Source of the DNA: Candidatus Bathyarchaeota archaeon
GTDB lineage: Archaea > Thermoproteota > Bathyarchaeia > 40CM-2-53-6
Direction of reading: 5' to 3'
NCBI GenBank assembly: GCA_963706285.1
Contig: CAVPLU010000003.1
Coordinates: 1 to 64,000, forward strand
Length of the DNA stretch: 64,000 bases
Both the position numbers and the translations under genes were made by a program. A model generated the notes under the pieces. That model was given only the letters and a program-made list of their open reading frames with translations, was not told the DNA's origin and did not search any database. Below, one piece after another: positions 4,952 through 54,888 of this stretch; positions within the stretch are counted from its first letter, which is position 1; every line of letters starts with the position of its first letter.

Positions 4952-5481
4952 TCGCTCCTCAGCAAGAAGTAATCATCAACGTGCTCGTGGACCATAAGCC
5001 AGGAGTCCTCTACGAAGTCTCCAACCTCTTCAGAAGAAGAGGATTCAACATCAGCAACGTCGCGATCGGAACATCCGAGAGGGACAAAATCGCTAGGATG
5101 ACACTTACAATGCGTGGCAGCGAAGCCGAGGCCATGCAGCTAGTCAAACATCTCGAGAATCTGGTTGATGTAATCAGAGCCGAGATAGTTGACTCCAGCA
5201 AAGCAGTGGTTAGAGAGCTCGCCCTCGTCAAGCTAGCTCCCAAACCAGAGGATAGGCTTCAGATCCTGAGCTTCGTAGACGTCTACCGAGCCAAAATCGT
5301 GCACCTGGCCGACGATAGCATGATTGTGGAAGCGTCAGGCGATTCGGACAAGATCGACGCCTTGATCGAACTGAGCCGGAACTTCGGACTGAAAGAAGTT
5401 GCCCGAACCGGCATCACGGCATTATCAAGAGAACGAAAACTAACAGAGTCAGAGTCACAAGGAAATGATGTAGGATGGTAA
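4948..5481 (+). CDS. ilvN: Acetolactate synthase small (regulatory, ACT) subunit
   Basis: HKPGVLYEVSNLFRRRGFNI, EVARTG; overlaps ilvB stop. Confidence 0.93.
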   Translation: MIAPQQEVIINVLVDHKPGVLYEVSNLFRRRGFNISNVAIGTSERDKIARMTLTMRGSEAEAMQLVKHLENLVDVIRAEIVDSSKAVVRELALVKLAPKPEDRLQILSFVDVYRAKIVHLADDSMIVEASGDSDKIDALIELSRNFGLKEVARTGITALSRERKLTESESQGNDVGW

Positions 5482-23654: not shown

Positions 23655-23763
23655 GGGCCCGTAGCTCAGTCAGGTAGAGCACCGGAGAAGCACGTTCGGT
23701 GAAGCTTTTACCTGTACGGAGGAGACCCGGGGGTCCCGGGTTCAATTCCCGGCGGGCCCGCCA
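23655..23763 (+). tRNA. tRNA-Lys(UUU) with two introns (30/31: 23686-23703; 37/38: 23711-23724) and encoded CCA
   Basis: Acceptor GGGCCCG/CGGGCCC, D-arm GCTC/GAGC, T-arm CCGGG-TTCAATT-CCCGG; removing both introns gives CCGGG-CTTTTAA-CCCGG. Confidence 0.9.
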
Positions 23764-23813
23764 TATTACACAACAATGATAGACGAGATTTCAATCGCCT
23801 TTCTGTCTATGAT

Positions 23814-23852
23814 GGTTCAAATTGGATGCCCGCACCAAGTGTACCGCTACCA
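23814..23852 (+). repeat. Modular site, first copy
   Basis: GGTTCAAATTGGATGCC-CGCACCAAGTGTAC-CGCTACC; core 23831-23844. Confidence 0.8.
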
Positions 23853-26278
23853 CGAGTAGCGATCGAGAATAGTCTGCGTAATGCGGTTTCTGGCGAGGGC
23901 TTCTTGGCTGATGTTTGCGGATCACAATTCCGAAAGCGTGGATATCACTGCGACGTGCATCGACTAGCAGTGACCGATGACCGAGAGCGTGTTGACCTGT
24001 GTTCACGGTGGAACTGCATGAGACCAGAGGTTGAGATGTGCGTCATCTCGGATATACTTAGAAGCATCGAACGCGTACGCGTCTAGACTCTGGCACGATG
24101 CCAAGACTAACGCAGATCCGAGAACATGGCCAAAGATTGAGGTATTGCAGAAACTCGTATGAGATTGGAGCTTGTATTCATCGGCAGATGTATATGACGG
24201 ATCGACGAATGCAGTAGGACTCGGAGTAACCTCTGGCTCAGAATCTACGACGGCCTGCATCTTGCCAAGGCAGTGATCTATGCAGACGATAGGATACAAT
24301 CACTGTTCGAACGTGAAGCTCCACGTGCTTCGATGCTTGCGAGTCTGGTCAATTGGCACCGATCGTTCGAATGGACCTTCGGAAGAGCTCGCAAGGCTAC
24401 GGGATCATCCCTCGTCATGGGAGCTCCGAGACAGAGTTCGCGTAGATCGCACGAACGCGAGGATTTCACAAGCATGATGAAGTACCAAAGATGCAGGTGC
24501 CTCGCAACGGCGCGACCTGACCTTCAAGGAGCTGATCTAGATGCGTCGGCTATGAAGACGATATTGGCAAGGAGATTGATGGTGAACCGCCAGCCTTGGC
24601 TCATACTGGAAGTCAGCGACAGGATTCCCGGGATCTGAGGTCGGCAGTCTCGGAGAAAACGTGCAACACAGTCGTGATATGTAGCCTCAGATTTGAACCA
24701 GAGTTTCGAAGCGAAGTCAGGATTTAGGAGTTCTGATGCAACCAACTTGACTCACAGGGCACGAGCTAACCGAACTCGCCACAGCTAGACAAGGCATCAT
24801 GCACAGGTGAAGCTACGGTTCGTCCTCGATTGCGGCATTCTACAGATCTCTGAGCAGTTGTACTGCTCTGTTGTTCATTCAACGATGAGTCCAGGTTCGA
24901 GCTGATCGCTGTTGGATGCTGTCTCAACTATGCGACAGGAGGACATTCCAAGTTCGTCATGATCGCACGAAGCATCTATGCCATTAGTGCCAATGCGTAA
25001 TCCCAGAATGACGCTATGGAAGCGAGTCTGGAACGAGGTTCTGTTTACGCATGCAGCGGCCTATGTCGAAAGTCTTGAGACACGCTTCGAGGTAAGTGGA
25101 TCTCTCTCCACTTCATCTCAGTGCTCACGGCAGTTCACGTCAGCGGTCATCCAGGGCTGCGCATCTCAAGTTGTTCTGACTGACGACGGAATAGGGAGAC
25201 GCCACTGACAAGCCCAGGAGCGATCAAATCTGGAACAACCCGGCGTAGACCGCATCAATTGCTCAACCGTCAACAGCCAAGCAATTCCCCACGTCATGCA
25301 AGATGACTATCTATGACGCCGAATGACTAGTCAGACTGGAGCCAGTACGGTGCATGAGCAGAGGTCGCTCGGGTTGCTCCTCGTCTTGGTTCCATGACTG
25401 AACCTTGACCTATCGCATGGCAGCAAACTGCGCAGTTTCCACGACCAACCAGCTGGGGGACTTGCGGAGCACACGAATGCTGAGCCCGTTGAGACGAACC
25501 TTACTTGGACTAACCGTCGCAATCTCGCAAGATGGCGGCATACTACGTCGCGACGATGGGGTTAACGAGCGTGTAGCCTTCCGAGCTGATGAGCCCGACG
25601 ACAGTCATCGAATGGCGTTTCATGATAGACGTACAAGAATCGTCAACGACAAAGTCCTTGCAGGACGCAAATCAGCATGAGTGATACGAACGTCGGCGAT
25701 ACGAGTTACATGATGCAGACGAATCTGCGTCGTCAGTGTACCAAGGCTGCCTTCCGCAATGAAACTTAGACACGCACGGTAAACGTACTGCAGATCGCGT
25801 CCAGTGTAACCGGCGACGAGTTCAGTTGGCATATTGCACCTTCAAGCATTGGAGGATCAAGACGGCGTTTTGATCTCGAGGTACTTGAACGGATTTATGG
25901 GCACCAGGGTCTCCTGAGTACGTGCTTAATGTTCGACAGATTCCTGAAAGAAACTACACGTTGGAGGCGCCGTGCACCTATGTTCCGGAATATCTGTCCC
26001 CAAGGCGCCATTTTGCTTACGCATCAGGTCGCAAGCATCATGAATGCGTTTTAGGACGCTGACTTCGAGTCAAGGTCCTCCTACAGCCAAAGGAACTTGA
26101 ACTGGCAGTTCAGATCTGTGACCGCGCGAATTTACCGACGACGAACCTCTTATACGGACTGGAACTCTTGCCCAACCAGCTGACCACCGACTGAACCAGC
26201 CGTCTAGGGTCCGCTTCGGATCATCTGTAGTTTGCAGTTGCGCAGACCACGCTTCAGAAGCCCTCGAAGACGTTTATG

Positions 26279-28453
<2,175 letters not shown>

Positions 28454-28546
28454 TCAAACGACGCCGTTGTCAGGCAATATTAGAATTGTGCCAGATAGAT
28501 ACGAGAGCTAGGAGTGAGAGATGAATTGGTGAGCTCGCTAATTCTT

Positions 28547-28660
28547 GGTGGTGGGTCCCTTGGTGCGTCCGCGACGACGAAAACTGACGGTTCAATTTGG
28601 GTGCCCGCGCTAAATGTACCACACACACAAATTACCTGAACGTCAACGGTTCAAATTTCA
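28547..28660. repeat. Modular site cluster (cores 28554-28567 inverted, 28606-28619)
   Basis: GGTGGTG-[rc CGCACCAAGGGACC]-..CGACGACG, then GGTTCAATTTGGGTGCC-CGCGCTAAATGTAC-CACACACAC. Confidence 0.8.
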
Positions 28661-29429: not shown

Positions 29430-29543
29430 GCTCAGGTCCTCTGGTTCATACTACTGGGACTCACACTACTCACCGATCTTCGGATGGATGTTCACTGCGT
29501 GTCCGGGACTACTGAACTTTGCAGTTGTCGTTCGTCGTTGAAA

Positions 29544-29665
29544 GTGTGCGTGGTATCAGTGGTGCGAGCATCGCAAATTGAACTGTGTGTTTGCGCACCA
29601 AGCTACCCACACGCCACACAACACAAAATTCCAAAACCACGAACAACGACGATTCAGATCCGGAT
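29544..29665. repeat. Modular site cluster (cores 29553-29566 minus, 29594-29607 plus)
   Basis: rc GTTCAATTTGCGATGCT-CGCACCACTGATAC-CACGCAC back-to-back with TGTGTGTTTG-CGCACCAAGCTACC-CACAC. Confidence 0.8.
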
Positions 29666-29892
29666 GCTCGACTCCACCAAGGGCCATTGGGTATCTGCTT
29701 GCCCCCAAAGAGAACTATGTTGATTCTTGCGTGAAGAGTTGAGTACTCTTTCCCAGTCCCTACTGACATCCATCATGTTCCGGATTTGTCGACATCCGTA
29801 CAAGGAACGTGCTCTGTGACATCAATTCGGGACCGCATCACGAGACAATCTTAATTATCCTGTCTCTACCAGCAAAAGTGGTTTGATGAACC

Positions 29893-30973
29893 ATGGTTGA
29901 ATTAGACTTCGGTGGCACAGTAGAAAATGTCATCACAAGAAAAGAGTTCACGATTAAGCAAGCCCAAGAAGTCTTGAAGGGCGAAGTTATCGCCACTCTC
30001 GGGTACGGCATCCAGGGTCGAGCTCAAGCCCTGAACATGCGGGACAACGGGATAAAAGTCATTGTTGGACAAGAGAAAGGCATTCACACCTCTTACTATG
30101 ATTCAGCTGTTGGGGACGGGTGGGTTCCAGACGAGACACTGTTTCCGATGGAAGAGGCTGCACGACGGGCAACCATCAAGATGTTTCTGCTCACAGACGC
30201 AGGACAGAGAGCAGACATGGCCCGTAGTTCGAGGAACTCTGAAGGAAGGCGACGCACTGTATTTCTCACACGGATTCTCCATAGTCTACGGAAACATAAC
30301 AGATGTCATCCCGCCGAAAAACGTCGATGTGATCTTGGTCGCCCCGAAGGGCTCCGGCACATCCGTTAGACGAAACTTCCTCGAAGGTAGCGGCATAAAC
30401 AGCAGCTTCGCCGTTCATCAAGACCACACAGGGAGAGCCTACAACCGAGTAAAGGCCATGGGCATCGCCATAGGCTCAGGCTACCTTTTCCCCACGACCT
30501 TCGAACGCGAAGTGTACAGCGATTTGACAGGCGAAAGAGGCGTATTGATGGGCGCCATAGCAGGAATAATGGAAGCCCAATACAACACACTTAGAGAGCA
30601 CGGACACAGCCCAAGCGAAGCCTTCAACGAAACCGTGGAGGAACTAACCCAAAGCCTCATCAGACTAGTTGATGAGAACGGTATGGACTGGATGTTCAAC
30701 AACTGCAGCGAAACCGCCCGCATAGGCGCGTTGCGATGGAGAAAACGCTTCCGCGACAACACCAAACCACTCTTCGACTCACTATACGAACTTGTAGTCG
30801 CGGGCGAAGAAACCCGCATAGTCCTTGAGAAAAGCAACGCGCCAGACTACAGACAGAAACTCGCGGAAGAACTCAAAGCCATGGGTGACTCCGAACTCTG
30901 GAGAGCAGGCGCCACAGTCCGATCCTTGCGACCGCAAAAAACGGGTTCAAATTCAAAGGCCCGCACCAGCTGA
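29893..30973 (+). CDS. ilvC: Ketol-acid reductoisomerase, Bacteroidetes/fungal-like long type (frameshift near 30210)
   Basis: LGYGIQGRAQALNMRDNG, YFSHGFS, VAPKGSG, SDLTGERGVLMGA, SPSEAFNETVEE. Confidence 0.9.
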
Positions 30974-30986
30974 CCCACACACAATT
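30944..30986 (+). repeat. Modular site overlapping the ilvC stop (core 30962-30975)
   Basis: GGTTCAAATTCAAAGGCC-CGCACCAGCTGACC-CACACACAATT. Confidence 0.85.
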
Positions 30987-30998
30987 CAAAGTCCAAAT

Positions 30999-31600
30999 TT
31001 AGACCCTTAGCGAGCCACGGAACGCCCTAACGCCATAGAAAGAGGGCGCACTGTTATGATACACGAAGACATGGCCGTAGCGGCGATCAGCAAAGAGGGC
31101 GCCGCCGAGTTTTCTAATATCAGAAGGTGTTTTCACCCAGCTCGACGTCTTCGTATCGAAATTTCCAAGTTTCTGCAACTCTCGATATTGTTCTTCCGTT
31201 AAAAGCTCAATGCCCATGGCAGCTGCCATATCAATAGCGTTATCTTCTGGTTGCACCCTTGCTTTTCCCTTGCCTCCTGCCCTTCACGGTCGTAACAAAC
31301 ATTTCTGCGGCCTTTAGGACTTTCCGCTGAACAATCATAAAAAATGTATTCGCCCGTCTTTTTATCATGACCAACAACATCCGGTTCACCGCCAGTTCTT
31401 TCCATTTCATTGAGTGACCACAGTTTTTCAGTATTAGCTTCCAGCTTTGCTTGTACTTTAGCCCATTCAAGACCTTTATGGCGGTTCATGTTTTTCTCAA
31501 AACGGGCTTTCAATGCTCTGAGTAGTTCTTCACGTTGTTCTGGTGACAACTCTTTTTTGAATGCAGTAATTGATGGCTTGCGCATAATCATAGTATTCAT
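30999..31600 (-). CDS. DUF4256 family protein (frameshift near 31260)
   Basis: LKARFEKNMNRH, MERTGGEPDV, SAESPKGRR, FDTKTSSW, LGGALFADRRY; visibly AT-richer than neighbours. Confidence 0.8.
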
Positions 31601-31869
31601 CCTGAGTTTATAAAATCATCTATGCAGGGTGACGTTTACTTTACAACTCATTGATTGAGAGTTCTCACCTCTAGATTCTATTTCAACATAGATTCAAGAA
31701 CTTTCTTCTAACATATCTCAGCATAGATCTATGCGTAGAAAGATTAGACTAAGGCGTTTCCTGTAACAGTATAATTCTATTGCACATGTTTCTAGCCTAG
31801 AATTCTAGGTATAAGACATTGACTTCTATCGTCTAGGCGTCGTCCGTGGCAGGAATAGGCGTTGAAAAT

Positions 31870-31901
31870 GTGTGTGTGCGCACCAAGGGTACCACACACA
31901 C
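31870..31901 (+). repeat. Modular site, symmetric form (core 31879-31892)
   Basis: GTGTGTGTG-CGCACCAAGGGTAC-CACACACAC, perfect 9-bp inverted arms. Confidence 0.88.
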
Positions 31902-32107
31902 GTGCGAAAGCGTTTCACGGTAACGTCAACTCGGAATCTCAGAACATCTGGGTCATGTTCCTATCTCTTTCTCTCGTGGTGAACTCTCTTGCTTTTGACA
32001 GATCCAATTGCCTGAATGAAGCATATATTCCAAGAATTCCGGCATCCCGCTAACCAGGAGAATGAGAGAGTTGATATTTCGCCATTAGTGGATTTGACTG
32101 ATTTCAC

Positions 32108-32560
32108 ATGTATCGAGAATGGGTACCCGTCGGCAGACTCGTTCTGGCATTAACACTATTCTTCATTGGCCTTAGCGTATTCATTGTGGCCGCAAGCATA
32201 GTTGCCGGAGAATCATCGGACATAGGTATAGGCACAACTCTGGTTCCTGTTATGTTCATCCTCGCGATCTTATGGAACTTCCGCGGCTTACGGATAGAGA
32301 TCGATGATATTGGGGTGACGGTCAAGTATGGCATGCTGAACAGTAAGCGCATTCTTTTTGATGAGATAGTCTCATGTGAACCAGTAGAATCCACATTCGG
32401 TAAGTATCTAGGGGTAGGGATCAGATATGGTAGAGACGGCTCATTTGCGTACACCACATCTTTCGGTTCAGCGGTGAAGATAAGTACGAAAGAGGGACGG
32501 CCCTTCGTCTTCTCTACACACCATCCTGAAGACGTCTGCAGAGCTATCTTGAACGAATAG
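32108..32560 (+). CDS. Membrane protein with C-terminal PH-like domain
   Basis: Two TM helices then IEIDDIGVTVKYG..RILFDEI..GVGIRY..FVFSTHHPE. Confidence 0.7.
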   Translation: MYREWVPVGRLVLALTLFFIGLSVFIVAASIVAGESSDIGIGTTLVPVMFILAILWNFRGLRIEIDDIGVTVKYGMLNSKRILFDEIVSCEPVESTFGKYLGVGIRYGRDGSFAYTTSFGSAVKISTKEGRPFVFSTHHPEDVCRAILNE

Positions 32561-32587
32561 AATTCTCTTGAATTCGCCATTTTTCAG

Positions 32588-32795
32588 GTGGTGGTGCGCA
32601 CCAGCTGACCCGACGACGAACACCCCTCCTATGACGGTTCAAATTTGGGTGCCCACGCTAAGCGTACCGACGACGAAAACACGCCACTCCCATGCAGGTT
32701 CAAATCTGACTGCCCGACCCAATTGTACCGACGACGCAAAGCGCCCCTCCCATACGACGTCCAGTTCTTCGATGACCGCACCAGGGAACAACAAT
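32588..32795 (+). repeat. Tandem array of four modular sites, period about 61 bp (cores 32597, 32654, 32715, 32777)
   Basis: Unit GGTTCAAAT-N5-TGCC-core-CGACGACG-AAA-CGCCCCTCC-CAT repeated. Confidence 0.88.
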
Positions 32796-33400: not shown

Positions 33401-33510
33401 TGTGTGCGGATCGCTTGGTGATCGACGACGACGCACACTTCACGCGCGGCGACGACGAAAACGCCCCTCATGTCGGGTTCAAATCTTGCTGCCCGCGCGG
33501 TACCGACAGC
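33401..33510. repeat. Modular site cluster
   Basis: TGTGTG-[inverted core]-CGACGACG ... CGACGACGAAAACGCCCCTCATGTC-GGGTTCAAATCTTGCTGCC-CGCGCGGTAC. Confidence 0.75.
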
Positions 33511-34488: not shown

Positions 34489-34490
34489 TT

Positions 34491-34570
34491 ATTTGTGTGT
34501 GCCTCTAGTGGCGCAGGCGTCGGAATTTGAAGCGTTGATTTTGTGTGTACGCACCAAGGTACCCATGCAC
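34491..34570. repeat. Modular site cluster (cores 34502-34515 minus, 34550-34563 plus)
   Basis: rc CTTCAAATTCCGACGCC-TGCGCCACTAGAGG-CACACACAAAT, then TTGTGTGTA-CGCACCAAGGTACC-CATGCAC. Confidence 0.8.
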
Positions 34571-34998
34571 GATAGCAAGCGAGCACAATAGCCTCCCTCC
34601 TCCAGAATGCTGGACAAAAGGATCAATCAACGTCGTATTTCCGCAACATCTCGAGTGTAAGCTAGTAGGACGAACCATAGGCGAGATACTGCAACTTACG
34701 GACGAGACGCATGTGGGTCCATTAGAGTTCACGCCTGAATCGTTCCCTTTCCAGATCCCAGATCAGATCGAGATCGGAGAGGCCTATGCGGAAGACCCAG
34801 ACGAGTTTCGCTCGGCAAGAACCCCAACGAGCCCATTCTAAGGCTCCATATTATGGCGGTTCAGGTGTAGTTGGCACCAAAAATCTGAAATCCTCGCTAG
34901 CATACAGAATAGATGTCCTTCTCGGGCAAGATGTCCGCATATACGGAGGGGACTCGGTAACGGAATTGTTGGTATTCCTTTGGAGTGTGAGTAAATAA

Positions 34999-37506
34999 GT
35001 GATTTCAAAGAATATTGGTCTTGACTGCAGGCATGGTCGGTTTGAGAAGAAAGGTAAGTTTCTCCTCGTAGTATCGTTAACGTTGGTCCTAATCATTAGC
35101 AGTGGAAGTTTTCTTACATCAAACGTTCTTGGCCACGTGACTGGCAAGACGCTTCAGGGATGGGCGCCGACTCCGCCTTCAATCGATGGAGACATCGTCG
35201 CCTCGGAATGGCAGACCGCTGCGTCATCCACATTCTCCTTGACAATTGGAGGAAACCCTTACGCAGGCACATTGTATATCATGAACGATGCGACCAATCT
35301 GTACCTAGCAGTTGCGATAGCAGATCCGACCTTCAGCCCTGATCCCACACCTGACGCCGTCGCTTTCTACTTCGACAATAACCACAACGGTATCTATCAA
35401 CCAGGTGAGGATTCCGTCGCGCAGTACTCCGGGGTAACCGGGTTCAGGGACCGATTTTTGCAGGCGATCCCTACAATGGGAATTGATGTGGCTTTAGGTG
35501 GAACTACTGACGGGTCCGGAGCCTGTGCCGCACACGCCGGTAACAACCACTTTGAGATATCCCATCCTCTCAACTCATTCGATGATGCACATGATTTCAG
35601 CCTTGGCCCGCTGAGTACCGTCGGTTTCACTATGGGGTATGCCGATGCGGCAGTGGGACAGGACTATTGGCCAGCCATCGCCACGGAGAACACTACGACT
35701 TGGGGTGATATCGTAATTGCTTCAGCTCCTCAGACCATGATGGCGTGGGCTTCGACGCCACCAACCATCGATGGTGTTCTCGGAGCCACCGAGTGGACAG
35801 GCGCTGCCCACACATCCTTCTCGATCGGCTGGAGTTTCGTCGGTGACCTATGGGTCATGAACGACGCCACCAACCTATACGTGGCTGTCAAGATCGCAGA
35901 TACATCTCTCACAACCATGGACAGGCTTTACATCGCCTTTGACAACAACAATAATGGTGTTCGTGAAGCGGGAGATGACATACTTGGAGTAATGGGCGAT
36001 GGAGAATTCATGGATCTGTTTTGGGGCCCCACCACCAAGTTTGACAACTTCGAAGCAGGAAGCTCCGATGGTGAAGGCAAATCATCCGGCTCCGGCGGTT
36101 TCAACAGCTTCGAAATTAGTCACCCGCTCAACACAGCAGACAACGTACATGACTTCAGTCTGACTGCAGGGGACACGGTTGGCTTCGATTTGGAGTACTG
36201 GGAAGAGGCAACAGGATACTGGGGAGACTGGCCTTCCCTGAACGCCAGAAGCTGGGCACACATTATCGTCGCCTCAGCTTCAGTGCCTACACCGGATTTT
36301 GCACTAGCGTGCGCTCCATCACCATTGAGTTTGACTCAAGGCGGAAGTGGCACGAGCACATGCACAGTAACTTCGCTGAATGCGTTTAGCGCAGCAGTTG
36401 GGCTTTCAGGTTCATGGGTTGGGGCAGCACCATCTGGTGTCACACAAGCACTTCCAACGCCCATAACGCCTACCTCCGGCGGGAATGCAACATCAATCCT
36501 AACAGTCACAACCGCTGCTAGCTCCTCAACCGGGTCCTTCACGTTCAGAGTTACCGGAACAAGCGATGCGCTCACACACGCCGTGGATATACCAGTTCAG
36601 ATAAACTCCGGCGCAAGTGACTTCACAATTACCGTAAGCCCAGCTTCACTTTCACTTGGTCCCGCTGCATCCGGAACCACAACGATAACAGTACAATCCA
36701 TAGGAACATTCTCCGCGCCGGTAACCCTGACGGGTTCCGGACTCAGCGGGTTGAACTTGGCCCTCGGTACCAATCCAGTGATCCCCCCAGCAGGCGGAAT
36801 CGCTCAAGCAGTCCTCACCATCACAGTAGCTGGAGCGCCCATAGGATCGCACTCAGTGACGATTACAGGAGCAAGTGGCGCACTTGGTCACAGTACCACG
36901 CTTACCGTCGAAGTCACCGGCACCGGAGGAGGATGCTTGATTGCCACAGCCACCTACGGATCCGAACTTTCAGATGAAGTACAATTTCTCAGAGGCTTCC
37001 GCGACAATTCAATCATGAAGACAACCTCGGGATCCAGTTTCATGATCGCTTTCAACGCTTGGTACTACTCATTCAGCCCAACCTTCGCACAATTCATACG
37101 CGAACACTCAACCGCAAGAACCATCGCAAAGGCAACGCTCTATCCACTCATGGGTATCCTCAGATTGGGCGCCGCCACATTTCAGGTGTCTCCAGCGAAC
37201 CCTGAGGCAGGTGCAGTGCTGTCAGGGCTACTAGTAAGCTCGCTCATAGGAGTAGTTTACCTAGCTCCTCCACTGGCGATAGCACTTGTCTTCTCTTCAA
37301 GACTACGTCGAATCGCGAAGAAACTGCAGTTGCCTATTATGATGATCCTGTTCAGCACCATGATGGTTGTGTCTTTCGTCATGATTGTTGGCGCACCTGG
37401 CATACTGACTATGCTTGCAACGTCCGCAATTGTACTCTCAAGTCTGATTGCTTCGGGACTATTCGCTTCGCATGCAATCCTGCGTGCGGTGAAGGATCCC
37501 AAATAG
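34999..37506 (+). CDS. Cell-surface protein: signal peptide, two CBM9/DOMON-like domains, two Ig-like repeats, CFI-box-CTERM and TM helices
   Basis: Duplicated PP(S/T)IDG..EW..MNDATNLY..FDNN..FEISHPLN; DF(A/T)..P..L..G.S.T repeats; CLIATATYGSELSDEVQFLRGFRDN. Confidence 0.8.
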   Translation: MISKNIGLDCRHGRFEKKGKFLLVVSLTLVLIISSGSFLTSNVLGHVTGKTLQGWAPTPPSIDGDIVASEWQTAASSTFSLTIGGNPYAGTLYIMNDATNLYLAVAIADPTFSPDPTPDAVAFYFDNNHNGIYQPGEDSVAQYSGVTGFRDRFLQAIPTMGIDVALGGTTDGSGACAAHAGNNHFEISHPLNSFDDAHDFSLGPLSTVGFTMGYADAAVGQDYWPAIATENTTTWGDIVIASAPQTMMAWASTPPTIDGVLGATEWTGAAHTSFSIGWSFVGDLWVMNDATNLYVAVKIADTSLTTMDRLYIAFDNNNNGVREAGDDILGVMGDGEFMDLFWGPTTKFDNFEAGSSDGEGKSSGSGGFNSFEISHPLNTADNVHDFSLTAGDTVGFDLEYWEEATGYWGDWPSLNARSWAHIIVASASVPTPDFALACAPSPLSLTQGGSGTSTCTVTSLNAFSAAVGLSGSWVGAAPSGVTQALPTPITPTSGGNATSILTVTTAASSSTGSFTFRVTGTSDALTHAVDIPVQINSGASDFTITVSPASLSLGPAASGTTTITVQSIGTFSAPVTLTGSGLSGLNLALGTNPVIPPAGGIAQAVLTITVAGAPIGSHSVTITGASGALGHSTTLTVEVTGTGGGCLIATATYGSELSDEVQFLRGFRDNSIMKTTSGSSFMIAFNAWYYSFSPTFAQFIREHSTARTIAKATLYPLMGILRLGAATFQVSPANPEAGAVLSGLLVSSLIGVVYLAPPLAIALVFSSRLRRIAKKLQLPIMMILFSTMMVVSFVMIVGAPGILTMLATSAIVLSSLIASGLFASHAILRAVKDPK

Positions 37507-37578: not shown

Positions 37579-37648
37579 TGTATGTGTGCCACCAAGTAAC
37601 CCGACGACGATTCAAATACGCATTTCCGCGCCAAGTCTACCGACATCG
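37579..37648 (+). repeat. Two adjacent modular sites (cores about 37589 and 37627-37640)
   Basis: TGTGTG-CCACCAAGTAACC-CGACGACG-ATTCAAATACGCATTTC-CGCGCCAAGTCTAC-CGACATCG. Confidence 0.8.
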
Positions 37649-38043
37649 AATTCTCTTGCTGCTCCTGACGTGTCCAAGAATCCTCTAACGTCATGTTCGA
37701 ACCTGTTTCGTACCTTGACCACCAACCGGGATCCTGATCGCCTTGATTTGAGCGACTGTGTATGCCTCTTTGAGGCGTTCCACCATAGACCCCCCTTGGC
37801 GGCGGGTTTCGATTTTTTGGAGGGTTTGGGCATGGTTCTCAGCTTCACTGTTCGATTGGTAGCGAGGCTCTTGAGGGCGTTCTGGAGTACAAGAAGCCAA
37901 TGCCAAACTACGAGTGTTGTTCTGCCGGACAGCAAGGTCTCAAGAAATCATAGCACAAATCCTTCGCGCACTACCGGTGTTCTCGGTCTTGGCCGTTTCC
38001 TTAGATGGATACGCTTTTCATCGTCAACGCGCTGTTTCTGGGC

Positions 38044-39027: not shown

Positions 39028-39063
39028 AATTGTGTGTGGGGCTAATGGTGCGCACACACAATT
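39028..39063 (-). repeat. Modular site, symmetric form (core 39039-39052)
   Basis: AATTGTGTGTG-N14-CACACACAATT, perfect 11-bp arms; core rc CGCACCATTAGCCC. Confidence 0.88.
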
Positions 39064-40798: not shown

Positions 40799-40972
40799 GC
40801 GAGGAGAATTTCACGCGTAGACCAGCTCAAACGTCGCGAAAAGTCGAAGAGCCTCCTCCACGCTAAGATCATTCGCCGACGCTCAATGGTGATGACTTTG
40901 AGTGTTTGACTATGGTCATCAAAGCCACAACGCGTCAGAAGCGCCTTCTGACGGAGTCTATTCTAGGGCCTA

Positions 40973-41144
40973 GTGTGTGGGTTTAATGGTGCGCACCACC
41001 ACCAAAACTGCCTAAACGACAAGGGTTCAATTTACGATGCCCCCCAGCTGACTCACGCACTTTGGTGATCGTGCTAGCTTCGCTCTCAACACAAGTCTCA
41101 GGACAAGGACTGGATCCGACTGATCTCTCCCGCACCAAGGTACC
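40973..41144. repeat. Modular site cluster (cores 40980-40993 minus, about 41041, 41131-41144)
   Basis: GTGTGTG-N14-CACCACC; GGTTCAATTTACGATGCC-CCCCAGCTGACT-CACGCAC; CGCACCAAGGTACC. Confidence 0.78.
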
Positions 41145-41818: not shown

Positions 41819-43342
41819 GTGGCGAAAGCGAACAAACTCGGAGACATCTTCAGCCCAATCTACTCGCTTGCGGCGTCCGGTTGTCCGGAGTTCAAAATGC
41901 TAGTTGATGGAAAATGGACCTCGCTGGAGCAACGTATCGAGGTCCGGAGTCCAATCGATGATGGTCTAGTTGCGACCATCCCGAACGCTTCGGAACGAGA
42001 AGCGGATCAAGCGGTCGAGTCATCAGACACTCACAGAAACGCCATCAGGACCGTCCCCGCAGTCGAGAAGATCGAGATCTTCCTGCGCACGCGCGAATTG
42101 CTGCTCGACAACGAAGACTCCTTTGTCCATATTCTGTCGCTGGAAGCGGGCAAGACATTGGCTAATGCAAAGGGTGAAGTGAGATCTACGGCCGAGCGCC
42201 TGAAGCTCACCCCCGGAGGACTACAGCAAGATCAGAGGAGAACACATCCCAGGCGATTGGTCAGACGAGACCGTGGGTACCTCCGCAGACGTACTAAGAG
42301 AGCCACTGGGGGTCGTCTTAGCGATTTCACCTTTCAACTACCCACTCTATATTACCTCAACCAAAGCGATCCCGGCACTTCTCGCGGGAAATTCGGTCGT
42401 TGTGAAACCGGCAAGTCAAGATCCACTCTCTTTTCTCATGTTCGCTCGACTCTGGAGGAAGCTGGACTTCCGGCGGGCACACTCAACGTCGTGACAGGAA
42501 GGGGACCAATCGGCGAGTATCTAGCGGGCCGCGAGAAGGTTGACATGATCAGCTTCACGGGAAGCACGGAGGTAGGAAAGAGGCTGGCTCGAGTTGCAGG
42601 CATCAAGAAACTGCACATGGAATTGGGCGGGAAAGGATGCGCGATAGTTCTCGGAGACGCTGACCTTGATCTTGCGGTGAAGGAGATCGCGAAAGGCTCT
42701 CTCAGCTACAGTGGGCAGAGATGTGATGCAGTAAGCCGAGTCCTCGTTGAACAGAGTATTGTAGAAGCGTTCGTTGAGAAGATTGTGGAGGAGGCTGGAA
42801 CGTACAAGGTTGGCGACCCACGCGACCCCACAGTCAAAGTCGGACCACTCATCAATCGCAGTGCAGTAGAAAGGGTGCATGGCCTCGTTACTGATGCGAT
42901 CGACAAAGGCGCCAAGGCGCTTGTAGGAGCGAAGTTCGAAGGCAACTACTACTATCCAACGGTGCTCTACCCGGTTCCTATAAACGCGAACATCATGTGG
43001 GAAGAGACATTTGGTCCCATAATTCCGGTAATGTCTGTGAAAGATGTGGACGAAGCGATTGACCTGACGAATAGGTCGAAGTATGGCTTGGATTCGTGTG
43101 TCTTCACCTTCAACCTTAACCTTGCAAGAAAAGTCGCAAAGAGACTTGAAGAAGGAGAGATAACGATAAACGCGGCTCCCCGCCACGGCGTCGGCTATTA
43201 CCCGTTCGGTGGAAACAAAGACTCTGGACTCGGTAGAGAAGGAATAGGATACAGCATAGAAGAAATGACGAGACTGAAGACAATCGTCTACAACTGGAAG
43301 CCCGCTAGAGTCTGGAGCGACCTAGTGGAACCGGGTAAGTGA
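41819..43342 (+). CDS. Aldehyde dehydrogenase, GAPN-like (two compensating frameshifts near 42210 and 42450)
   Basis: REPLGVVLAISPFNYPL in the alternate frame, FTGSTEVG, ELGGK, SGQRC, EETFGP, PFGGNKDSG. Confidence 0.85.
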   Translation: MAKANKLGDIFSPIYSLAASGCPEFKMLVDGKWTSLEQRIEVRSPIDDGLVATIPNASEREADQAVESSDTHRNAIRTVPAVEKIEIFLRTRELLLDNEDSFVHILSLEAGKTLANAKGEVRSTAERLKLTPGGLQQDQRRTHPRRLVRRDRGYLRRRTKRATGGRLSDFTFQLPTLYYLNQSDPGTSRGKFGRCETGKSRSTLFSHVRSTLEEAGLPAGTLNVVTGRGPIGEYLAGREKVDMISFTGSTEVGKRLARVAGIKKLHMELGGKGCAIVLGDADLDLAVKEIAKGSLSYSGQRCDAVSRVLVEQSIVEAFVEKIVEEAGTYKVGDPRDPTVKVGPLINRSAVERVHGLVTDAIDKGAKALVGAKFEGNYYYPTVLYPVPINANIMWEETFGPIIPVMSVKDVDEAIDLTNRSKYGLDSCVFTFNLNLARKVAKRLEEGEITINAAPRHGVGYYPFGGNKDSGLGREGIGYSIEEMTRLKTIVYNWKPARVWSDLVEPGK

Positions 43343-43423: not shown

Positions 43424-43465
43424 GGTTCAAACTGGTCGCCCGCACAGAGCATAACCACACACCAA
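43424..43465 (+). repeat. Modular site (core about 43441-43454)
   Basis: GGTTCAAACTGGTCGCC-CGCACAGAGCATAA-CCACACAC. Confidence 0.72.
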
Positions 43466-43601
43466 CGAAAGGAAGAATGGGCGAGCCTGACTGCAAGCGC
43501 TTAGCCGTTTCTTGCCTCATGGGCGAAAGGGCATTAGAGCGAGCTGCCGTCGGAGATTATCAAGAAAAATGTCGCTTGCTCCACTTTCGAATATCTATTT
43601 C

Positions 43602-45377: not shown

Positions 45378-45461
45378 AAGAGGCCCCTCTTTCCCGGAAA
45401 GAGGCCCCTCTTTAGGTCAAAGCGGCACCTCTTTCCCGGAGGGCGGCACCTCTTTGCAGAG
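45378..45461. repeat. 4 x 21-bp tandem repeat
   Basis: AAGAGGCCCCTCTTTCCCGGA / AAGAGGCCCCTCTTTAGGTCA / AAGCGGCACCTCTTTCCCGGA / GGGCGGCACCTCTTTGCAGAG. Confidence 0.85.
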
Positions 45462-45575
45462 AGTGGTCCTACATAATGCCACGCATGCCGCGGGCGCAGC
45501 GATAGGGAAAGAGGATAGCGGGGGCATCTCGCATTGGGCGCACAGTCTGACAGCCCTTTGTCATCGTTATTGTTA

Positions 45576-45617
45576 TTGTGTATGAGTAGGCTGGTGCGGG
45601 CAGTGGAGTTTGAACTG
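45576..45617 (-). repeat. Modular site (core 45585-45598)
   Basis: rc AGTTCAAACTCCACTGCC-CGCACCAGCCTACT-CATACACAA. Confidence 0.82.
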
Positions 45618-46237: not shown

Positions 46238-47407
46238 TCACTGGTGAGACTCGTTGTCTCTCACCAACAGGACGACTGATATGAGGAAAAGAGTGTACAC
46301 CGCTGCAATGAGCCATGAGATCGAATAGCCAAACGATATGGCGAGAAGAGAGAACGCCACCGGAGACCAGAATCCTGCGAACATTTGAATACAATTTACC
46401 CAGCTTACTGCAAGCGTTTCATATTCCGCTGACACGGCCGGGACCTCTCGCGCGGCCAAGTAGCTAATAGTGAAGGCGCCACTGCAACTCCCCACAATGA
46501 TAGTGGCCCCGATTGCAGAGTAAGAGTTTCCAATGGAAACTAATGCGACCGCGATTGCCAATGCTGATCCGAGAGAGAATAGCAACAAGCGAATTCTCCT
46601 TGTTTTATCATATAGTAACCCAAACAGAGGAGATGCAAATATCGCAGATAACGGACTGAGACTCCCTATTATTCCAGCTGACGCCGGCCCCAGATTCAAT
46701 GACTGTTCAAGATAGAAGATCATGAAAGTGTTAATGAGGATCTGACCGCTGCCTATCCCAAATAGGTAAAGCGAAAGTATGAGCAACCATCTATTCGAAA
46801 GCACTTTTCGCAAGTCATCTGCCTTGATGACAAAGCCTTTGCGCAGTTCATCTCTTGGCAAGTATGCCAAGAGGAAGAGGGCGCCTAGAACGCCTAGAGC
46901 ACTGCTAATAGCTAGGCTTAAGCGCCATCCAGTCAGATCAGCTAGAACTGACCATGCAAAAAGACCCAGCGCTCCTCCAACATAGAATGCTGCGTTGAAA
47001 ACTCCAACTCCGAAGCCTTGTGATTTACGACTAAACGACTTTGCGACTAGTGTGACTCCTGGACCAAAAAATAGGGCCATGCCAACTCCGACGAAGAATC
47101 TCAGTATGACGAACTGATAGAACTCAGAAGTGACTGCCGTCAGACTCGTTGCAGCCGACGAAATCAGTATCCCGTATATGGCGATTTTCCTTGGTCCGAA
47201 CTTTGCTGCGAATACTCCTCCTGGAATTTGAAACACACCTAGTCCAATGTAGAAACTCGCAGTAACGAAGCCTAGGCCTGAAACATCTTGACCGAAATCA
47301 TGAGCCATGAATGCGAAAACTGCAGCCACGTTATACCAATTAACCGCATAGATTACTCTAGAAAAGACCAACGAAGCGACGGCGCCGCGGTTAGATATGC
47401 TTCTCAT
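46238..47407 (-). CDS. MFS transporter
   Basis: About 12 TM; GVFAAKFGPRK motif A, LRFFVGVG; start ATG 47407. Confidence 0.88.
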   Translation of the reverse strand: MRSISNRGAVASLVFSRVIYAVNWYNVAAVFAFMAHDFGQDVSGLGFVTASFYIGLGVFQIPGGVFAAKFGPRKIAIYGILISSAATSLTAVTSEFYQFVILRFFVGVGMALFFGPGVTLVAKSFSRKSQGFGVGVFNAAFYVGGALGLFAWSVLADLTGWRLSLAISSALGVLGALFLLAYLPRDELRKGFVIKADDLRKVLSNRWLLILSLYLFGIGSGQILINTFMIFYLEQSLNLGPASAGIIGSLSPLSAIFASPLFGLLYDKTRRIRLLLFSLGSALAIAVALVSIGNSYSAIGATIIVGSCSGAFTISYLAAREVPAVSAEYETLAVSWVNCIQMFAGFWSPVAFSLLAISFGYSISWLIAAVYTLFLISVVLLVRDNESHQ

Positions 47408-47491
47408 TTGAATAGTTGTCCAGCAATTAATGCGTGGTCGCAGTGAGCATTTCAAACCTAAAGAACTATGCTGACGGCGGGACCTCTTAGC

Positions 47492-47520
47492 GTGTGTGTA
47501 GCTTAGTGCGCACCACCACA
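47492..47520 (-). repeat. Modular site (core 47497-47510)
   Basis: GTGTG-TGTAGCTTAGTGCG-CACCACCAC. Confidence 0.75.
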
Positions 47521-47678
47521 ATACGCCCCTATGTGACTGCAGACTACCATGAAAGACTCGACTGAAGCACAGCATGTGCTAAGACAAGTCTTCTTTGAGT
47601 CCAGAATATTCGGGGCTGCCGGCAATAAGACTCTACATGCAGAGTTAAAATACCGCGTCGCGCGTTTTCCACATTACG

Positions 47679-48521
47679 ATGACTACTAAAGTCTGTCTCG
47701 TAACAGGCGCCAGTTCTGGTGTTGGTCGAGCTACGGCAGCCAGATTAGCAGGAACCGGCGCAGGTGTGGTAGTGGTTTGTCGTGACAGGACTCGCGGAGA
47801 ACAGGCTCGTAAGGAAATTATTTCACAGACCCAAAACCAATCAGTTGACTTGATGATCGCCGACCTATCCTCTCTGGCTTCTGTTCGCAGTCTGGTGGCC
47901 AATTTCGAAGCGAGATACTCCAGACTAGACGTGCTGATAAACGACGCTGCGATTTACAGCAGCACTCGTGAAGTTACGCCTGATGGCTTTGAGTTAATGT
48001 TTGCAACAAACTATTTGGGGCCGTTCCTCCTTACCCGTTTGCTGATTCCTCGCCTAGTAGCAGCGGCGCCTTCCAGAGTCATCAGCGTGACTGCACCCTC
48101 TACAACTAGACCGAATCTCAATGACCTGCAAGGAGAACGAAAGTTCGGGGCGTTGAGTGCCTTCGGGGCGTCGAAAGCCGCGGATCTCCTCTTCACTTAC
48201 GCACTCTCTCGCAGGCTTGAACGAGTAGGCGTGATGGCAAATGCCTATCATCCCGGCATCGTGCGAACAGGCCTGATGAGCAGGGCGTCTGTGCCTGTTC
48301 GATTGGTCTCAAGCGTTATGAATTTGTTCGTCGGGGTCACGCCTGAACGAGCTTCTAAGGGGTTAGTAGAGTTGGCCACGTCTGACAGATTTACGAAATT
48401 GACAGGACAACTCGTGCACAATGGCAAGACGATTGCCGCACCGTTCGTCGAGGACGTAGACTTTCAAGACCATCTGTGGAAAACAAGCTGCGGACTCGTC
48501 GGACTACCGGAAACGGTTTGA
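47679..48521 (+). CDS. Short-chain dehydrogenase/reductase (retinol dehydrogenase-like)
   Basis: TGASSGVG, DLSSLASVR, FATNYLGPFLLT; YxxxK reads FGASK, so catalytic Tyr is replaced. Confidence 0.88.
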   Translation: MTTKVCLVTGASSGVGRATAARLAGTGAGVVVVCRDRTRGEQARKEIISQTQNQSVDLMIADLSSLASVRSLVANFEARYSRLDVLINDAAIYSSTREVTPDGFELMFATNYLGPFLLTRLLIPRLVAAAPSRVISVTAPSTTRPNLNDLQGERKFGALSAFGASKAADLLFTYALSRRLERVGVMANAYHPGIVRTGLMSRASVPVRLVSSVMNLFVGVTPERASKGLVELATSDRFTKLTGQLVHNGKTIAAPFVEDVDFQDHLWKTSCGLVGLPETV

Positions 48522-49220: not shown

Positions 49221-49360
49221 GGTGGTGGTCTGCTCTGGATGCTTGCGCCAGAATTTGGACAGGCATTTACGTGTGTGTGGGTACCGTGGCGTGCACACAC
49301 TAAATTGCACGAACGATTACGGTTCAATTCACGGCACTTGCACCAGACTCACACAAATCA
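49221..49360. repeat. Modular site cluster, three copies (cores about 49228 minus, 49280-49293 minus, about 49339 plus)
   Basis: GTGTGTGTG-GGTACCGTGGCGTG-CACACAC flanked by outward-reading G(G)T(T/C)CAA(A/T)T arms. Confidence 0.78.
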
Positions 49361-51508: not shown

Positions 51509-51587
51509 TATCTATGACAGGAACTATTCGAAGCGCACGACAAATTGTGCTCTGAATCGTCGGTAGCGAACGTTCTTGGGATTTTCT

Positions 51588-51626
51588 ATGTGGTATCACT
51601 CGTGCGAGCGCCGTGCAATTTGAACC
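51588..51626 (-). repeat. Modular site (core 51593-51606)
   Basis: rc GGTTCAAATTGCACGGCGCT-CGCACGAGTGATAC-CACAT. Confidence 0.72.
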
Positions 51627-53464: not shown

Positions 53465-53627
53465 GGTTAAGATTTGGACGCGTACCATAAGACCAACACG
53501 CAATCAGTCCAAGAACGACGGTTCAAATTCTTGTGCTCCGACCAAGTCATACCGTGCACACGACGACAACTGCTGACAACCAGCTCACGACTCAAACCCA
53601 GTGCTCACGCAAGGAGCGCACACAATT
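53465..53627 (+). repeat. Tandem of three degenerate modular sites
   Basis: GGTTAAGAT..CGTACCATAAGACC; GGTTCAAAT..CGACCAAGTCATAC; GACTCAAAC..CACGCAAGGAGCG-CACACAATT. Confidence 0.68.
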
Positions 53628-53691: not shown

Positions 53692-54888
53692 ATGGTCCTG
53701 CCAATGGGATCAAAGGAGATTGCTCCAAACGTCTTCTGGGTGGGCGCGAAGCACCATAACCGAAGACTGTTCGACGGACTGATACCGCTCCCACATGGTA
53801 CCAGCTACAACGCGTATCTGATCGTAGGATCGAAGAAAACCGCTCTGATCGACACTGTAAATCCAGGGTTCGAGAAAGAACTGTTAGCCAAGATATCAGA
53901 ACGCATCGACCCCGCTAAGATAGACTACGTCATAATGAACCATGCAGAGCCAGACCACGCGAACGCAGCTAAGGATGTGTTAGCGGTTGCGAAGAATGCT
54001 AGGTTAGTTACCGGCGTGAAGGGTAAGGAGGCAGCGATGATGTACTTCGACATACCCTCAGAGAAGATCATGGTCGTCGATGAGAGTTCCATGATAGACC
54101 TCGGCGGCAAGACGTTGAAGTTCGTGGACGCTCCCTGGCTGCACTGGCCGGAGACGATATTCACGTACCTTGAGGAGGACAAGATACTGTTCCCCTGCGA
54201 CTTCTTTGGATCGCATCTGGCGGTCGGCGAGTTCTACGCGGACGAGTATGGCAACGAGAAGACGCTCGACATGGCAAAGATGTACTTCGCCGAGATCATG
54301 ATGCCGTTCAGGAAGCCTGGTCAGACAGCGATCGAGAAGGTCAAGAAGCTCGGGCCGAAGATTATTGCGCCCTCACACGGCATGATCTGGAGAGAATCGA
54401 AGATCATCCTAGACGAGTACGCCAAATGGACCAGCGAGAAGTTCCAGAGGAAGGTCATGATCGTTTATGTCTCTATGTGGGGAAGCACTGAGAAGATGGT
54501 GCTGGCCCTCAGGGATGCGCTCGTGAAGAAGGGCATCACCGTTCAGCTGTTCGACATACCGAACACGGACATCGGCCACATCGCAAAGGAACTCGTTGAT
54601 GCGCCGGTCGTCGTCGTGGGTGCACCAGCGGTGCTTGGTGGAGTACACCCGGTCGCCGCATATGCGACGATGCTGGTTAAGGTCCTGAGAGCGCCGACTA
54701 GGTATGCAGCTGTGCTTACCTCGTATGGCTGGTCCGGAGGTGCCGTGAAAGCACTCCAAGGCATCCTTGAAGGAACGAAGATCGAGGTGCTGGGCGCAGT
54801 CGAGGTTAAAGGTCCGCCTAAGAAAGCCGAGTTCGACAAGGTCACTGAACTGGCAGACACGATAGGTGAGAAACTGAATTCACTCTGA
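53692..54888 (+). CDS. fprA: Flavodiiron protein (FprA/A-type flavoprotein)
   Basis: GTSYNAYL, NHAEPDH, LHWPET, CDFFGSH, PSHG, SMWGST, SYGWSG. Confidence 0.93.
   Translation: MVLPMGSKEIAPNVFWVGAKHHNRRLFDGLIPLPHGTSYNAYLIVGSKKTALIDTVNPGFEKELLAKISERIDPAKIDYVIMNHAEPDHANAAKDVLAVAKNARLVTGVKGKEAAMMYFDIPSEKIMVVDESSMIDLGGKTLKFVDAPWLHWPETIFTYLEEDKILFPCDFFGSHLAVGEFYADEYGNEKTLDMAKMYFAEIMMPFRKPGQTAIEKVKKLGPKIIAPSHGMIWRESKIILDEYAKWTSEKFQRKVMIVYVSMWGSTEKMVLALRDALVKKGITVQLFDIPNTDIGHIAKELVDAPVVVVGAPAVLGGVHPVAAYATMLVKVLRAPTRYAAVLTSYGWSGGAVKALQGILEGTKIEVLGAVEVKGPPKKAEFDKVTELADTIGEKLNSL

Follow-up and report, generated by a model that had tools for sequence, protein, structure and literature searches.

Casposons of family 2, represented by those of Methanosarcina mazei and Aciduliprofundum boonei, combine a Cas1-family casposase, a transposase related to the CRISPR spacer integrase, with terminal inverted repeats and with 14-15-bp duplications at the 3' ends of tRNA genes. 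In M. mazei, the casposase targets the extreme 3' end of a tRNA-Leu gene and generates 14-bp duplications, the first four bases of which, a conserved CGCA, are also the last four of the tRNA; the enzyme needs the duplication together with ~30 bp of upstream tRNA sequence, and its activity is lost when either the CGCA or an upstream block is mutated (PMC6977970). Tandem casposons are separated by one shared duplication only, solo terminal repeats are frequent, and the way in which casposon islands are built has been likened to Tn7 (PMC4779613); the islands are given as ~8-20 kb in a 2023 review (PMC9939771). Here we describe a family of short, tRNA-3'-end-like repeats that delimit an island of accessory gene cassettes in the genome of a member of the Bathyarchaeia (2.13 Mb in 21 contigs, 51% G+C, ~89% complete by estimate). 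The stretch of DNA that was analysed, the first 64 kb of contig C3, is referred to as the window. Judged from sequence, it is likely, though far from certain, that these sites are junctions left by casposase-type (Cas1-family) integration.

The repeats are ~45-55 nucleotides (nt) long and number 16 in the window and 48 in the genome; the search used an nhmmer profile built from the 16 window copies and returned 32 matches beyond the seeds. Eighteen copies lie on C3 between 23.8 and 65.4 kb and the others are clustered on C9, C10, C16, C14, C6, C8 and C4, with tandem copies at several places (periods of 54-61 nt). The T-loop-like word GGTTCAAAT, with at most one mismatch, occurs 28 times in the window; 100 shuffles gave 13.6 on average and 24 at most. 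An earlier note, made from the letters of this DNA alone, had pointed to a CCA that follows this word at the spacing of a tRNA 3' end, and the enrichment is borne out genome-wide: among 211 T-loop-like sites without a fully paired T stem, CCA stands at +13 in 22 and at each of the other offsets from 5 to 24 in 2-10, and exact GGTTCAAAT-N13-CCA occurs 22 times in the genome, real tRNAs included, with none for the backwards control. Among 46 anchored family copies, 30 have the CCA at +13 and 2 at +12; because the sites are copies of one repeat family, this common spacing belongs to one consensus and not to many independent coincidences. The sites quoted in the note (23814, 30944, 32697, 37609 and, on the minus strand, 45616 and 34533) were all recovered with the same letters, including the 12-nt spacing of the copy at 23814, and the loss of T-stem pairing that it described is general, none of the 46 copies pairing at all five positions (range, 1-4 pairs). 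Only 4 of the 71 sites genome-wide fall inside confident open reading frames (ORFs), though such ORFs cover 70% of the genome. Scanning with a position weight matrix (PWM) at ≥14 bits gave 96 matches versus 25 for the reversed matrix, for which reason only matches with flanking grammar were retained; a 26-nt core nhmmer model was too insensitive for site finding.

A full site is built of three parts: a pseudo-tRNA 3' end, hereafter the leader, with the form GGTTCAAAT-N6-GCC; a 14-nt unit (14-mer) starting with CGCA, usually CGCACCA; and a conserved tip, CACACACAA.., CGACGACGAAAAC.. or CCACCACC. The consensus of the 46 copies reads GGTTCAAATT..G.T-GCC-CGCACCA.......-CACACACAA, and the CCA noticed earlier corresponds to letters 5-7 of the CGCACCA in the 14-nt unit. 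In leaderless sites the pseudo-tRNA part is replaced by an inverted tip, GTGTGTG or GGTGGTG, as in GTGTGTGTG-CGCACCAAGGGTAC-CACACACAC at 31867-31901 (plus strand, 14-mer at 31879-31892); as such a site consists of an inverted tip, a 14-mer and the tip of the next insert, it can be understood as the shared junction of tandem inserts. Grammar scans recognized 50 junctions genome-wide: a leader is present in 28 of them and an inverted tip in 22. A handful look false; in nearly all of the 50 the 14-mer begins with CGCA or a one-letter variant. Right-hand tips are of three kinds (CACACAC, CGACGACGAAAAC and CCACCAC), and the terminal inverted repeats, CACACAC.. and ..GTGTGTG with the variants CCACCAC and GGTGGTG, face each other across the 14-mers. 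Spacings of 14, 16, 18 and 20 nt between GTGTG and CACAC account for 10, 12, 12 and 8 cases, odd spacings for 0-3 and the reverse arrangement for 0-2; the smallest populated spacing is 14, the larger ones being due to the dinucleotide repeats in the tips, and the spacing in GTTCAAWT-N-CACAC begins at 23, that is, 9 + 14. Both ends of the insert at 30977-31875 share CACACACA.ATT..CAA.G.CC, few inserts having been compared end against end. At C9:33480-33520 there is a near-perfect palindrome, GTGTGTGG-GTCTAGTGGTGCGCACCAGCCAACC-CACACAC, with two 14-mers head to head sharing GCGC, which resembles the "symmetrised" target described as working in vitro (PMC6977970).

The island is bounded on the left by an intron-containing tRNA gene with an encoded CCA (23655-23763, plus strand), which scores 52.8 bits with Rfam RF00005 (23655-23760) and is detected by ARAGORN only when introns are allowed. 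Its 3' terminus consists of GGTTCAATT, 13 nt and CCA, and it had been proposed to be the first unit of the array. Aligned to the 21 conserved positions of the site consensus, it agrees at 15 and ranks in the middle of the genome's tRNAs, which argues against that proposal, and the best-matching tRNA, ending ..CCGCACCA, agrees at 19. The consensus ends ..GCCCGCA-CCA, as do tRNAs ending CGCA, and the neighbouring tRNA ends ..GGGCCCG-CCA. As the best matches are the tRNAs ending CGCA(CCA), the sites copy a tRNA-Leu-type end, not that of their neighbour. The resemblance between the 50 nt past the tRNA and the array spacer, also claimed in the note, is real: 23782-23813 is comparable to 32604-32635. 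This segment (plus strand; GACGAG..CGCCTTTCTGTCTATGAT) is a remnant resembling a "b-type" terminal repeat and stands directly ahead of the first leader; it occurs in the closest relative (G001) as well and can be compared with CGACGACGAAAAC..CCTCCTATGAC ahead of 32636 and with sequences at C14:1050 and C16:10502. As to the tRNA genes in general, only 16 reach the Rfam threshold and a scan for T arms and acceptors suggests ~33; most are found by ARAGORN only with introns allowed, often at odd positions, and most encode the CCA, with three Leu-like genes ending CCCCCGCA lacking it. The G001 ortholog of the 23655-23763 tRNA (L023 ~5340-5370) has an extra insert of ~26 nt in the D-loop region that is absent here, suggesting intron gain or loss between genomes that are 94% identical.

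Relatives for comparison were gathered via a housekeeping protein of the left flank and are all labelled Bathyarchaeia; g1 denotes the genus of the analysed genome and g2, g3 and g4 the other genera compared. One relative, G009, encodes a Cas1 protein (367 residues, open at a contig end) that matches PDB 6opm_A with an E-value of 1.3e-63, the best other Cas1 chain reaching 5e-22; 6opm_A is the casposase structure of M. mazei (PMC6977970). Used as a query, the G009 protein gave four matches at three loci in the analysed genome, all truncated or with stops: C10:48969-49334, which has 72% identity across 118 residues with the C-terminal region of the query and lies 1.6 kb from the nearest site; C9:512-838, interrupted by stops, at 3.2 kb; and C10:248699-248806, truncated, at 3.1 kb. 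All three loci were so close to sites in 0.0006 of random draws. The fragment at C10:48969-49334 lies ~600 nt inside a junction composed of a 14-mer ending TGCG and then CATCACCACC; this is the appearance expected of a decayed casposon end. Among the 10 largest ORFs of the window, Pfam models identified no casposase.

Full-length casposase homologues, with open frames of ~405-441 residues, are found in g4 relatives, and the sole near-full g1 copy is cut by a contig end. The repeat model has matches in all nine other g1 genomes (3-79 each), in four of five g4 genomes, in none of six g2 and none of three g3 genomes, and in one genome of another family (15 matches); copies in distant genomes retain GGTTCAAAT, GCYCGCACCA and the CACACAC tip. 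Casposase homologues occur in 6 of 9 g1 genomes, 15 of 23 in g4, 0 of 22 in g2 and 0 of 3 in g3. Both searches covered 25 genomes in common; by our own tally, 14 of these have the repeat, and the nine genomes with a homologue all belong to this group, none of the 11 without the repeat having one, a co-occurrence that, as the relatives are not independent, amounts to a genus-level association. G066 has an intact casposase gene of 407 residues (L101:13418-14641) that is separated by 1.9 kb from a full site to its left; between the two is an AIPR-family (abortive-infection-type) gene (L101 11657-13345), a possible defence cargo.

The cassette island occupies 23858-64000 of the window and continues to ~66 kb of the contig, with single genes or small operons between sites. 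It begins 50 nt past the 23655-23763 tRNA gene, which is its left edge; the genes to the left of the tRNA form a shikimate-pathway operon, and tRNA and operon are conserved together in relatives. Between 23 and 66 kb the contig has 26 sites, with none before 23.7 kb and none after 70 kb, and a site is present in 18 of the 32 gaps between confident ORFs within the island versus 0 of 105 elsewhere on the contig. Genes assigned with Pfam include katG (26279-28435, minus strand), a CBM9-like gene (34999-37506), an aldehyde dehydrogenase (41819-43342), an MFS transporter (46238-47575, minus strand), an SDR gene (47679-48521), a flavodiiron protein (53692-54888) and PIG-L/GT4 genes (glycosyltransferases; 55830-57751). 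The katG cassette region (26000-28000) has a G+C content of 59.8%, versus 48-53% around it, which is compatible with a recent foreign origin. Inside an ORF at 61411-61614 there are seven overlapping copies of a repeat with an 18-nt period (ACTACAACCAGCACGACC..), probably encoding a low-complexity stretch of protein rich in Thr and Pro.

In eight of nine genus relatives synteny holds for the left flank; the island to the right of the tRNA is not syntenic. G001, which is 93-96% identical, has the same cassettes in a different order and at different loci. Its first site after the tRNA is a hybrid, the left part being like ours and the part from N6 onward like a site on C16 of the analysed genome, and it is followed by our C16 cassette, then by the cassette at 29592-30976 and then by the sequence from 37737 onward; other window cassettes occupy different contexts in G001. 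The site past the 29592-30976 cassette in G001 was considered as an empty form of the 30976-32596 insert and rejected, the downstream DNA not being clearly orthologous. Within the analysed genome, a 2.3-kb stretch containing the aldehyde dehydrogenase gene is duplicated on C10, starting right past a solo core and ending with its site. A further stretch of 497 bp is 98% identical between C3:65425-65920 and C9:90131-90626; on C3 it lies between two oppositely oriented junctions, and no site is visible on C9.

If casposase-type integration is responsible, the leader would be copied from a tRNA ending ..CGCA, of which it has the T loop and the final acceptor bases, the 14-nt unit beginning CGCA would be the target-site duplication, in length and start as in family-2 casposases, and the tip would be the terminal repeat of the inserted DNA. 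The integrase would recognize the leader plus CGCA and join the two 3' ends of the donor 14 bp apart; repeated integrations, also into leader copies situated just inside terminal repeats, would stack single-gene cassettes into islands. Leaders on both strands would require either that leader copies are carried just inside terminal repeats, as suggested by the tandem runs and by ends with a reverse-complement leader plus reverse-complement tip (at C14:93397 and 28570), or inversions that took place between copies afterwards. With so many similar sites, recombination among them may since have shuffled and inverted the cassettes. Since only truncated casposase genes remain in the analysed genome, the system looks largely fossil there.

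Several observations weigh against this interpretation. A DNA polymerase of family B (PolB) is a defining gene of casposons, which are self-synthesizing elements. A PF00136 gene lies within 10 kb of only one of 11 full-length casposase genes (from five relatives), and that copy looks cellular; PF03175 is near none of the main casposase group and 11 kb from one divergent homologue, and the 10 ORFs that were tested on either side of the G066 casposase (L101 9.5-19.9 kb) include no member of a polymerase family. Attempts in G066, G070 and G065 delimited no complete element, that is, a casposase with two matching tips and a matched duplication. The junctions beside intact casposases have no second copy of their 14-mer within L101 or L102 (at most two mismatches), nor has the G066 junction 14-mer one in the whole genome (at most one mismatch), and casposase genes of different genomes are ~68-72% identical over the gene only, with no common flanks. 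In the analysed genome itself, identical 14-mers CGCACCAGCTGACC (30962 and 32597) flank the insert 30976-32596, the only neighbouring same-orientation pair of junctions with identical 14-mers where we estimate ~0.12 by chance; as a few variants are common among the 14-mers, this pair is weak evidence, and matched duplications are the exception, most not being preserved. Homology with G001 breaks at varying points in the sites (in the T loop, at the start of the 14-mer and past it), and only 7 of 54 breaks are within 80 nt of a strong site; the corresponding figure for random intergenic positions is 0.9%, an enrichment that is weak evidence because the loci were chosen for holding sites or matching the island. 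Many breaks relative to the fragmented, mosaic G001 assembly are far from any site. Leaders are numerous and scattered over both strands, and some form inverted pairs with a gene in between; a simple insertion model does not yield such an arrangement. Finally, real tRNAs ending CGCA look unoccupied in the analysed genome, so that the targets used would be the pseudo-tRNA copies.

Among the alternatives, the least improbable is an intergenic repeat of the host that has a role in regulation or architecture, as a promoter, terminator, insulator or site for a DNA-binding protein. It would simply be located in the intergenic DNA of accessory genes, with cassettes shuffled by ordinary homologous recombination between copies, the likeness to casposon targets being coincidental. 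The conservation of the sequence across genera and in one other family, its strictly intergenic location and the variable position of the homology breakpoints within the site would all fit, as would the placement of several copies 50-100 nt past a same-strand stop codon and of others 160-200 nt ahead of a start. Against this, the usual TATA box of the genome is CTTATAT, ~45 nt ahead of starts, and genes downstream of sites have their own TATA-like boxes closer to the start, for which reasons an ordinary promoter was also rejected as the main explanation; the sites have no T run, their orientation relative to genes is inconsistent, and they are limited to variable islands, not to a class of genes. 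The inverted tips, the 14-nt unit and the co-occurrence with casposase relics would be left unexplained, and we regard a host repeat as an unlikely origin of the sites.

Less still speaks for a tyrosine integrase whose att or attC-like sites these would be, the array at the tRNA gene being integron-like or the product of serial integration and each site the tRNA-3'-end repeat that one integration left behind; we consider this explanation improbable. It derives its appeal from an array that starts 50 nt past a tRNA, from sites that copy a tRNA 3' end and bound single-gene cassettes varying between relatives, and from G009, which has 79 site matches and nine PF00589 matches, two of the latter sharing a contig with a site. 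The analysed genome, however, has no match to the tyrosine recombinase family PF00589 with Pfam models that detected it in 14 of 14 positive-control genomes, nor to serine recombinases or Y1 transposases (detected in 12 and 6 of the 14 control genomes, respectively), and its one TnpB-like gene is distant from the arrays. Among relatives, PF00589 is unrelated to the repeat: all six g2 genomes have it and no repeats, and G003, G004 and G034 have 16, 36 and 15 repeat matches and no PF00589. Further, the sites are on both strands and do not repeat the 3' end of the neighbouring tRNA, and a fixed 14-nt CGCA unit between inverted tips does not belong to the features of tyrosine-recombinase cores. 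The notion of tRNA-derived landing pads in the earlier note thus survives in that the tRNA-3'-end-like sites copy the type of sequence that integrases of mobile elements take as a target, would serve as many landing pads and bound cassettes that differ between close relatives; a tyrosine integrase as the enzyme and the neighbouring tRNA as the template do not, and from the anatomy and the gene distribution we infer that a casposase is probably the enzyme that made the joints.

The other option raised at the outset, RNA elements resembling tRNAs that would be processing signals (for RNase P, RNase Z or the CCA-adding enzyme) or small RNAs akin to tRNA fragments, is very improbable: there is a T-loop box with CCA at tRNA spacing, and one G034 copy is preceded at ~20 nt by a T-rich, TATA-like stretch, but the copies have no paired T stem, no upstream acceptor 5' partner was seen, the variable N6 has no pairing partner on inspection, Rfam gives no match to the copies at gathering thresholds or at E up to 10, and copies lie on both strands irrespective of adjacent genes. 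Related candidates were tried and discarded, namely split-tRNA 3' halves or a minihelix (no T stem, no 5' acceptor partner), a small hairpin pairing N6 with GCACCAAG (which inspection showed not to be conserved), a C/D-box RNA or peptide-coding sequence (boxes and reading frame inconsistent) and a known RNA family (no Rfam match).

The remaining sites of the window are as follows, from left to right. The first full site (23814-23857, plus strand) has the leader GGTTCAAAT-N5-GCC and the 14-mer CGCACCAAGTGTAC at 23831-23844. A leaderless junction ahead of katG (GGACGCACCAAGGGACCCACCACC; 28545-28570, minus strand, PWM 15.7) is followed by two full sites, one on the plus strand (28589-28632; leader, 14-mer CGCGCTAAATGTAC at 28606-28619, tip CACACACACAA) and one on the minus strand (29541-29584; 14-mer CGCACCACTGATAC at plus-strand coordinates 29553-29566, tip CACGCACAC). 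The leaderless junction at 29586-29623 (plus strand; GTGTGTTTG, 14-mer CGCACCAAGCTACC at 29594-29607, CACACGCC) is the left end of the cassette common to G001 at 96% identity. Further on the plus strand are the full site at 30944-30990 (14-mer CGCACCAGCTGACC at 30962-30975, tip CACACACAATTC), the leaderless junction at 32588-32620 (GGTGGTGGTG, CGCACCAGCTGACC at 32597-32610, CGACGACGAAC), with the same 14-mer as at 30962, the full site at 32636-32680 (14-mer CACGCTAAGCGTAC at 32654-32667, tip CGACGACGAAAAC), its tandem copy 61 nt later (full site, 32697-32741) and a full site that is degenerate past the leader (33476-33510). A minus-strand full site at 34490-34533 (14-mer TGCGCCACTAGAGG, tip CACACACAA) precedes two on the plus strand, a leaderless junction at 34542-34579 (GTGTGTA, CGCACCAAGGTACC at 34550-34563, CATGCAC) and a full site at 37609-37652 (14-mer CGCGCCAAGTCTAC at 37627-37640).

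Two leaderless junctions on the minus strand (39030-39061, 14-mer CGCACCATTAGCCC, and 40971-41002, 14-mer CGCACCATTAAACC) are followed on the plus strand by a full site with a degenerate 14-mer (41024-41065) and by the solo core CCCGCACCAAGGTACC (41120-41135), located at the exact start of the 2.3-kb duplicate shared with C10. The full site at 43424-43468 (plus strand), 82 nt 3' of the aldehyde dehydrogenase gene, is duplicated with that gene on C10. The minus strand has a full site at 45572-45616 (14-mer CGCACCAGCCTACT) and leaderless junctions at 47488-47519 (14-mer CGCACTAAGCTACA) and 49272-49311 (14-mer CACGCCACGGTACC); a full site on the plus strand (49321-49360) and one on the minus strand (51582-51626) come next, the orthologous place of the latter in G001 being a leaderless junction in the opposite orientation. 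The last three are all on the plus strand: a full site at 53520-53565, ahead of the flavodiiron-protein gene, whose own TATA-like box sits nearer its start; a full site at 60213-60256, with the 14-mer CACGCGAAATGTGC and a b-type tip; and a leaderless junction at 61905-61942, with the 14-mer TGCATCAAGCGATC. The window also contains a second, unrelated repeat family (45378-45455), in which a 21-nt unit (AAGAGGCCCCTCTTTCCCGG..), itself a small palindrome, is repeated three to four times in tandem; the related words AAAGAGGTGCC and GGCACCTCTTT are the most frequent 11-mers of the genome, with 22-24 copies.

If the sites are indeed of casposase origin, casposon chemistry would have produced islands of 40 kb that consist of single accessory genes, in an archaeal class widespread in soil and sediment, and Cas1-type integrases would be a major route of gene gain in Bathyarchaeia. 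The cargo, which includes catalase-peroxidase, a flavodiiron protein, transporters and dehydrogenases, looks like oxygen-stress and niche genes. Natural arrays of a leader plus a short duplication would also bear directly on the origin of CRISPR arrays; the literature consulted describes casposons as large transposons that replicate themselves, and their interest lies chiefly in CRISPR spacer integration being presumed to descend from them. More speculatively, a Cas1-family integrase without a PolB partner could be the engine of integron-like gene capture in these Bathyarchaeia, with cassettes that carry a pseudo-tRNA-Leu leader inside the terminal repeat; with such a portable leader, every insertion would bring a new landing pad and arrays would grow by nesting. 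We hold this to be rather unlikely; were it true, the tandem runs of leader, 14-nt unit and tip, with their period of 54-61 nt, would be casposase-made leader-repeat arrays, and thereby a living intermediate between casposons and CRISPR arrays. For annotation, it matters that the repeats break assemblies, and they should be labelled neither as fragments of tRNAs nor as small RNAs.

Both the target rule and stacking in tandem have been published. In the paper listings and passages searched, casposase-less small cargo cassettes, dispersed pseudo-tRNA leaders, missing PolB and a Bathyarchaeia host were not found, and the full-text search, as judged by title or abstract, returned no publication connecting casposons with Bathyarchaeia. 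A word search of the review PMC9939771 returned no mention of non-autonomous or miniature elements in the text covered.

As regards other systems of gene accumulation, the island is reminiscent of sedentary chromosomal integrons in its long arrays of mostly single-gene, promoter-independent-looking cassettes with a conserved separating site, and in the variation of cassette content and order between close relatives. Unlike integrons, with their IntI, attI and attC, no tyrosine integrase was found here, the genes to the left of the tRNA are a shikimate operon, and the 14-nt duplication unit has no integron counterpart. The attC sites are imperfect inverted repeats in one orientation, with a box consensus of GTTRRRY; the sites described here are on both strands, do not form an imperfect hairpin with R and L boxes, and their GTTCAAAT does not fit that consensus. 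Archaeal tRNA-targeting elements of the SSV and pNOB8 types similarly leave partial tRNA 3' ends flanking foreign genes downstream of a tRNA gene. Their repeats are exact copies of the 3' part of the host tRNA, made by tyrosine integrases, whereas the copies here differ from the neighbouring tRNA and no such integrase was found in the genome. With Tn7 and attTn7, a comparison drawn for casposons in PMC4779613, the island has in common the repeated insertion, harmless to the host, beside the end of a conserved housekeeping gene for an RNA or a protein and the stacking of partly decayed elements; the enzyme family, the target and the duplication length are different.

Compared with family-2 casposons, the inserts are unusual in being mostly single accessory genes of 0.6-3 kb without a casposase of their own, and, instead of the tRNA gene itself, the landing sequence is a pseudo-tRNA copy that is dispersed through the islands on both strands. 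Tips of three types occur together, PolB was not found near 10 of 11 casposase genes and the duplications are mostly unmatched. What is shared is a tRNA-like target ending CGCA, a 14-nt CGCA unit between leader and terminal repeat, tandem inserts that share one such unit, solo tips, islands at one locus, and casposase homologues closest to the solved M. mazei enzyme. By analogy with the published elements, a full site matches a family-2 casposon target joined to the tip of an element, and a leaderless site matches the junction of two casposons in tandem.

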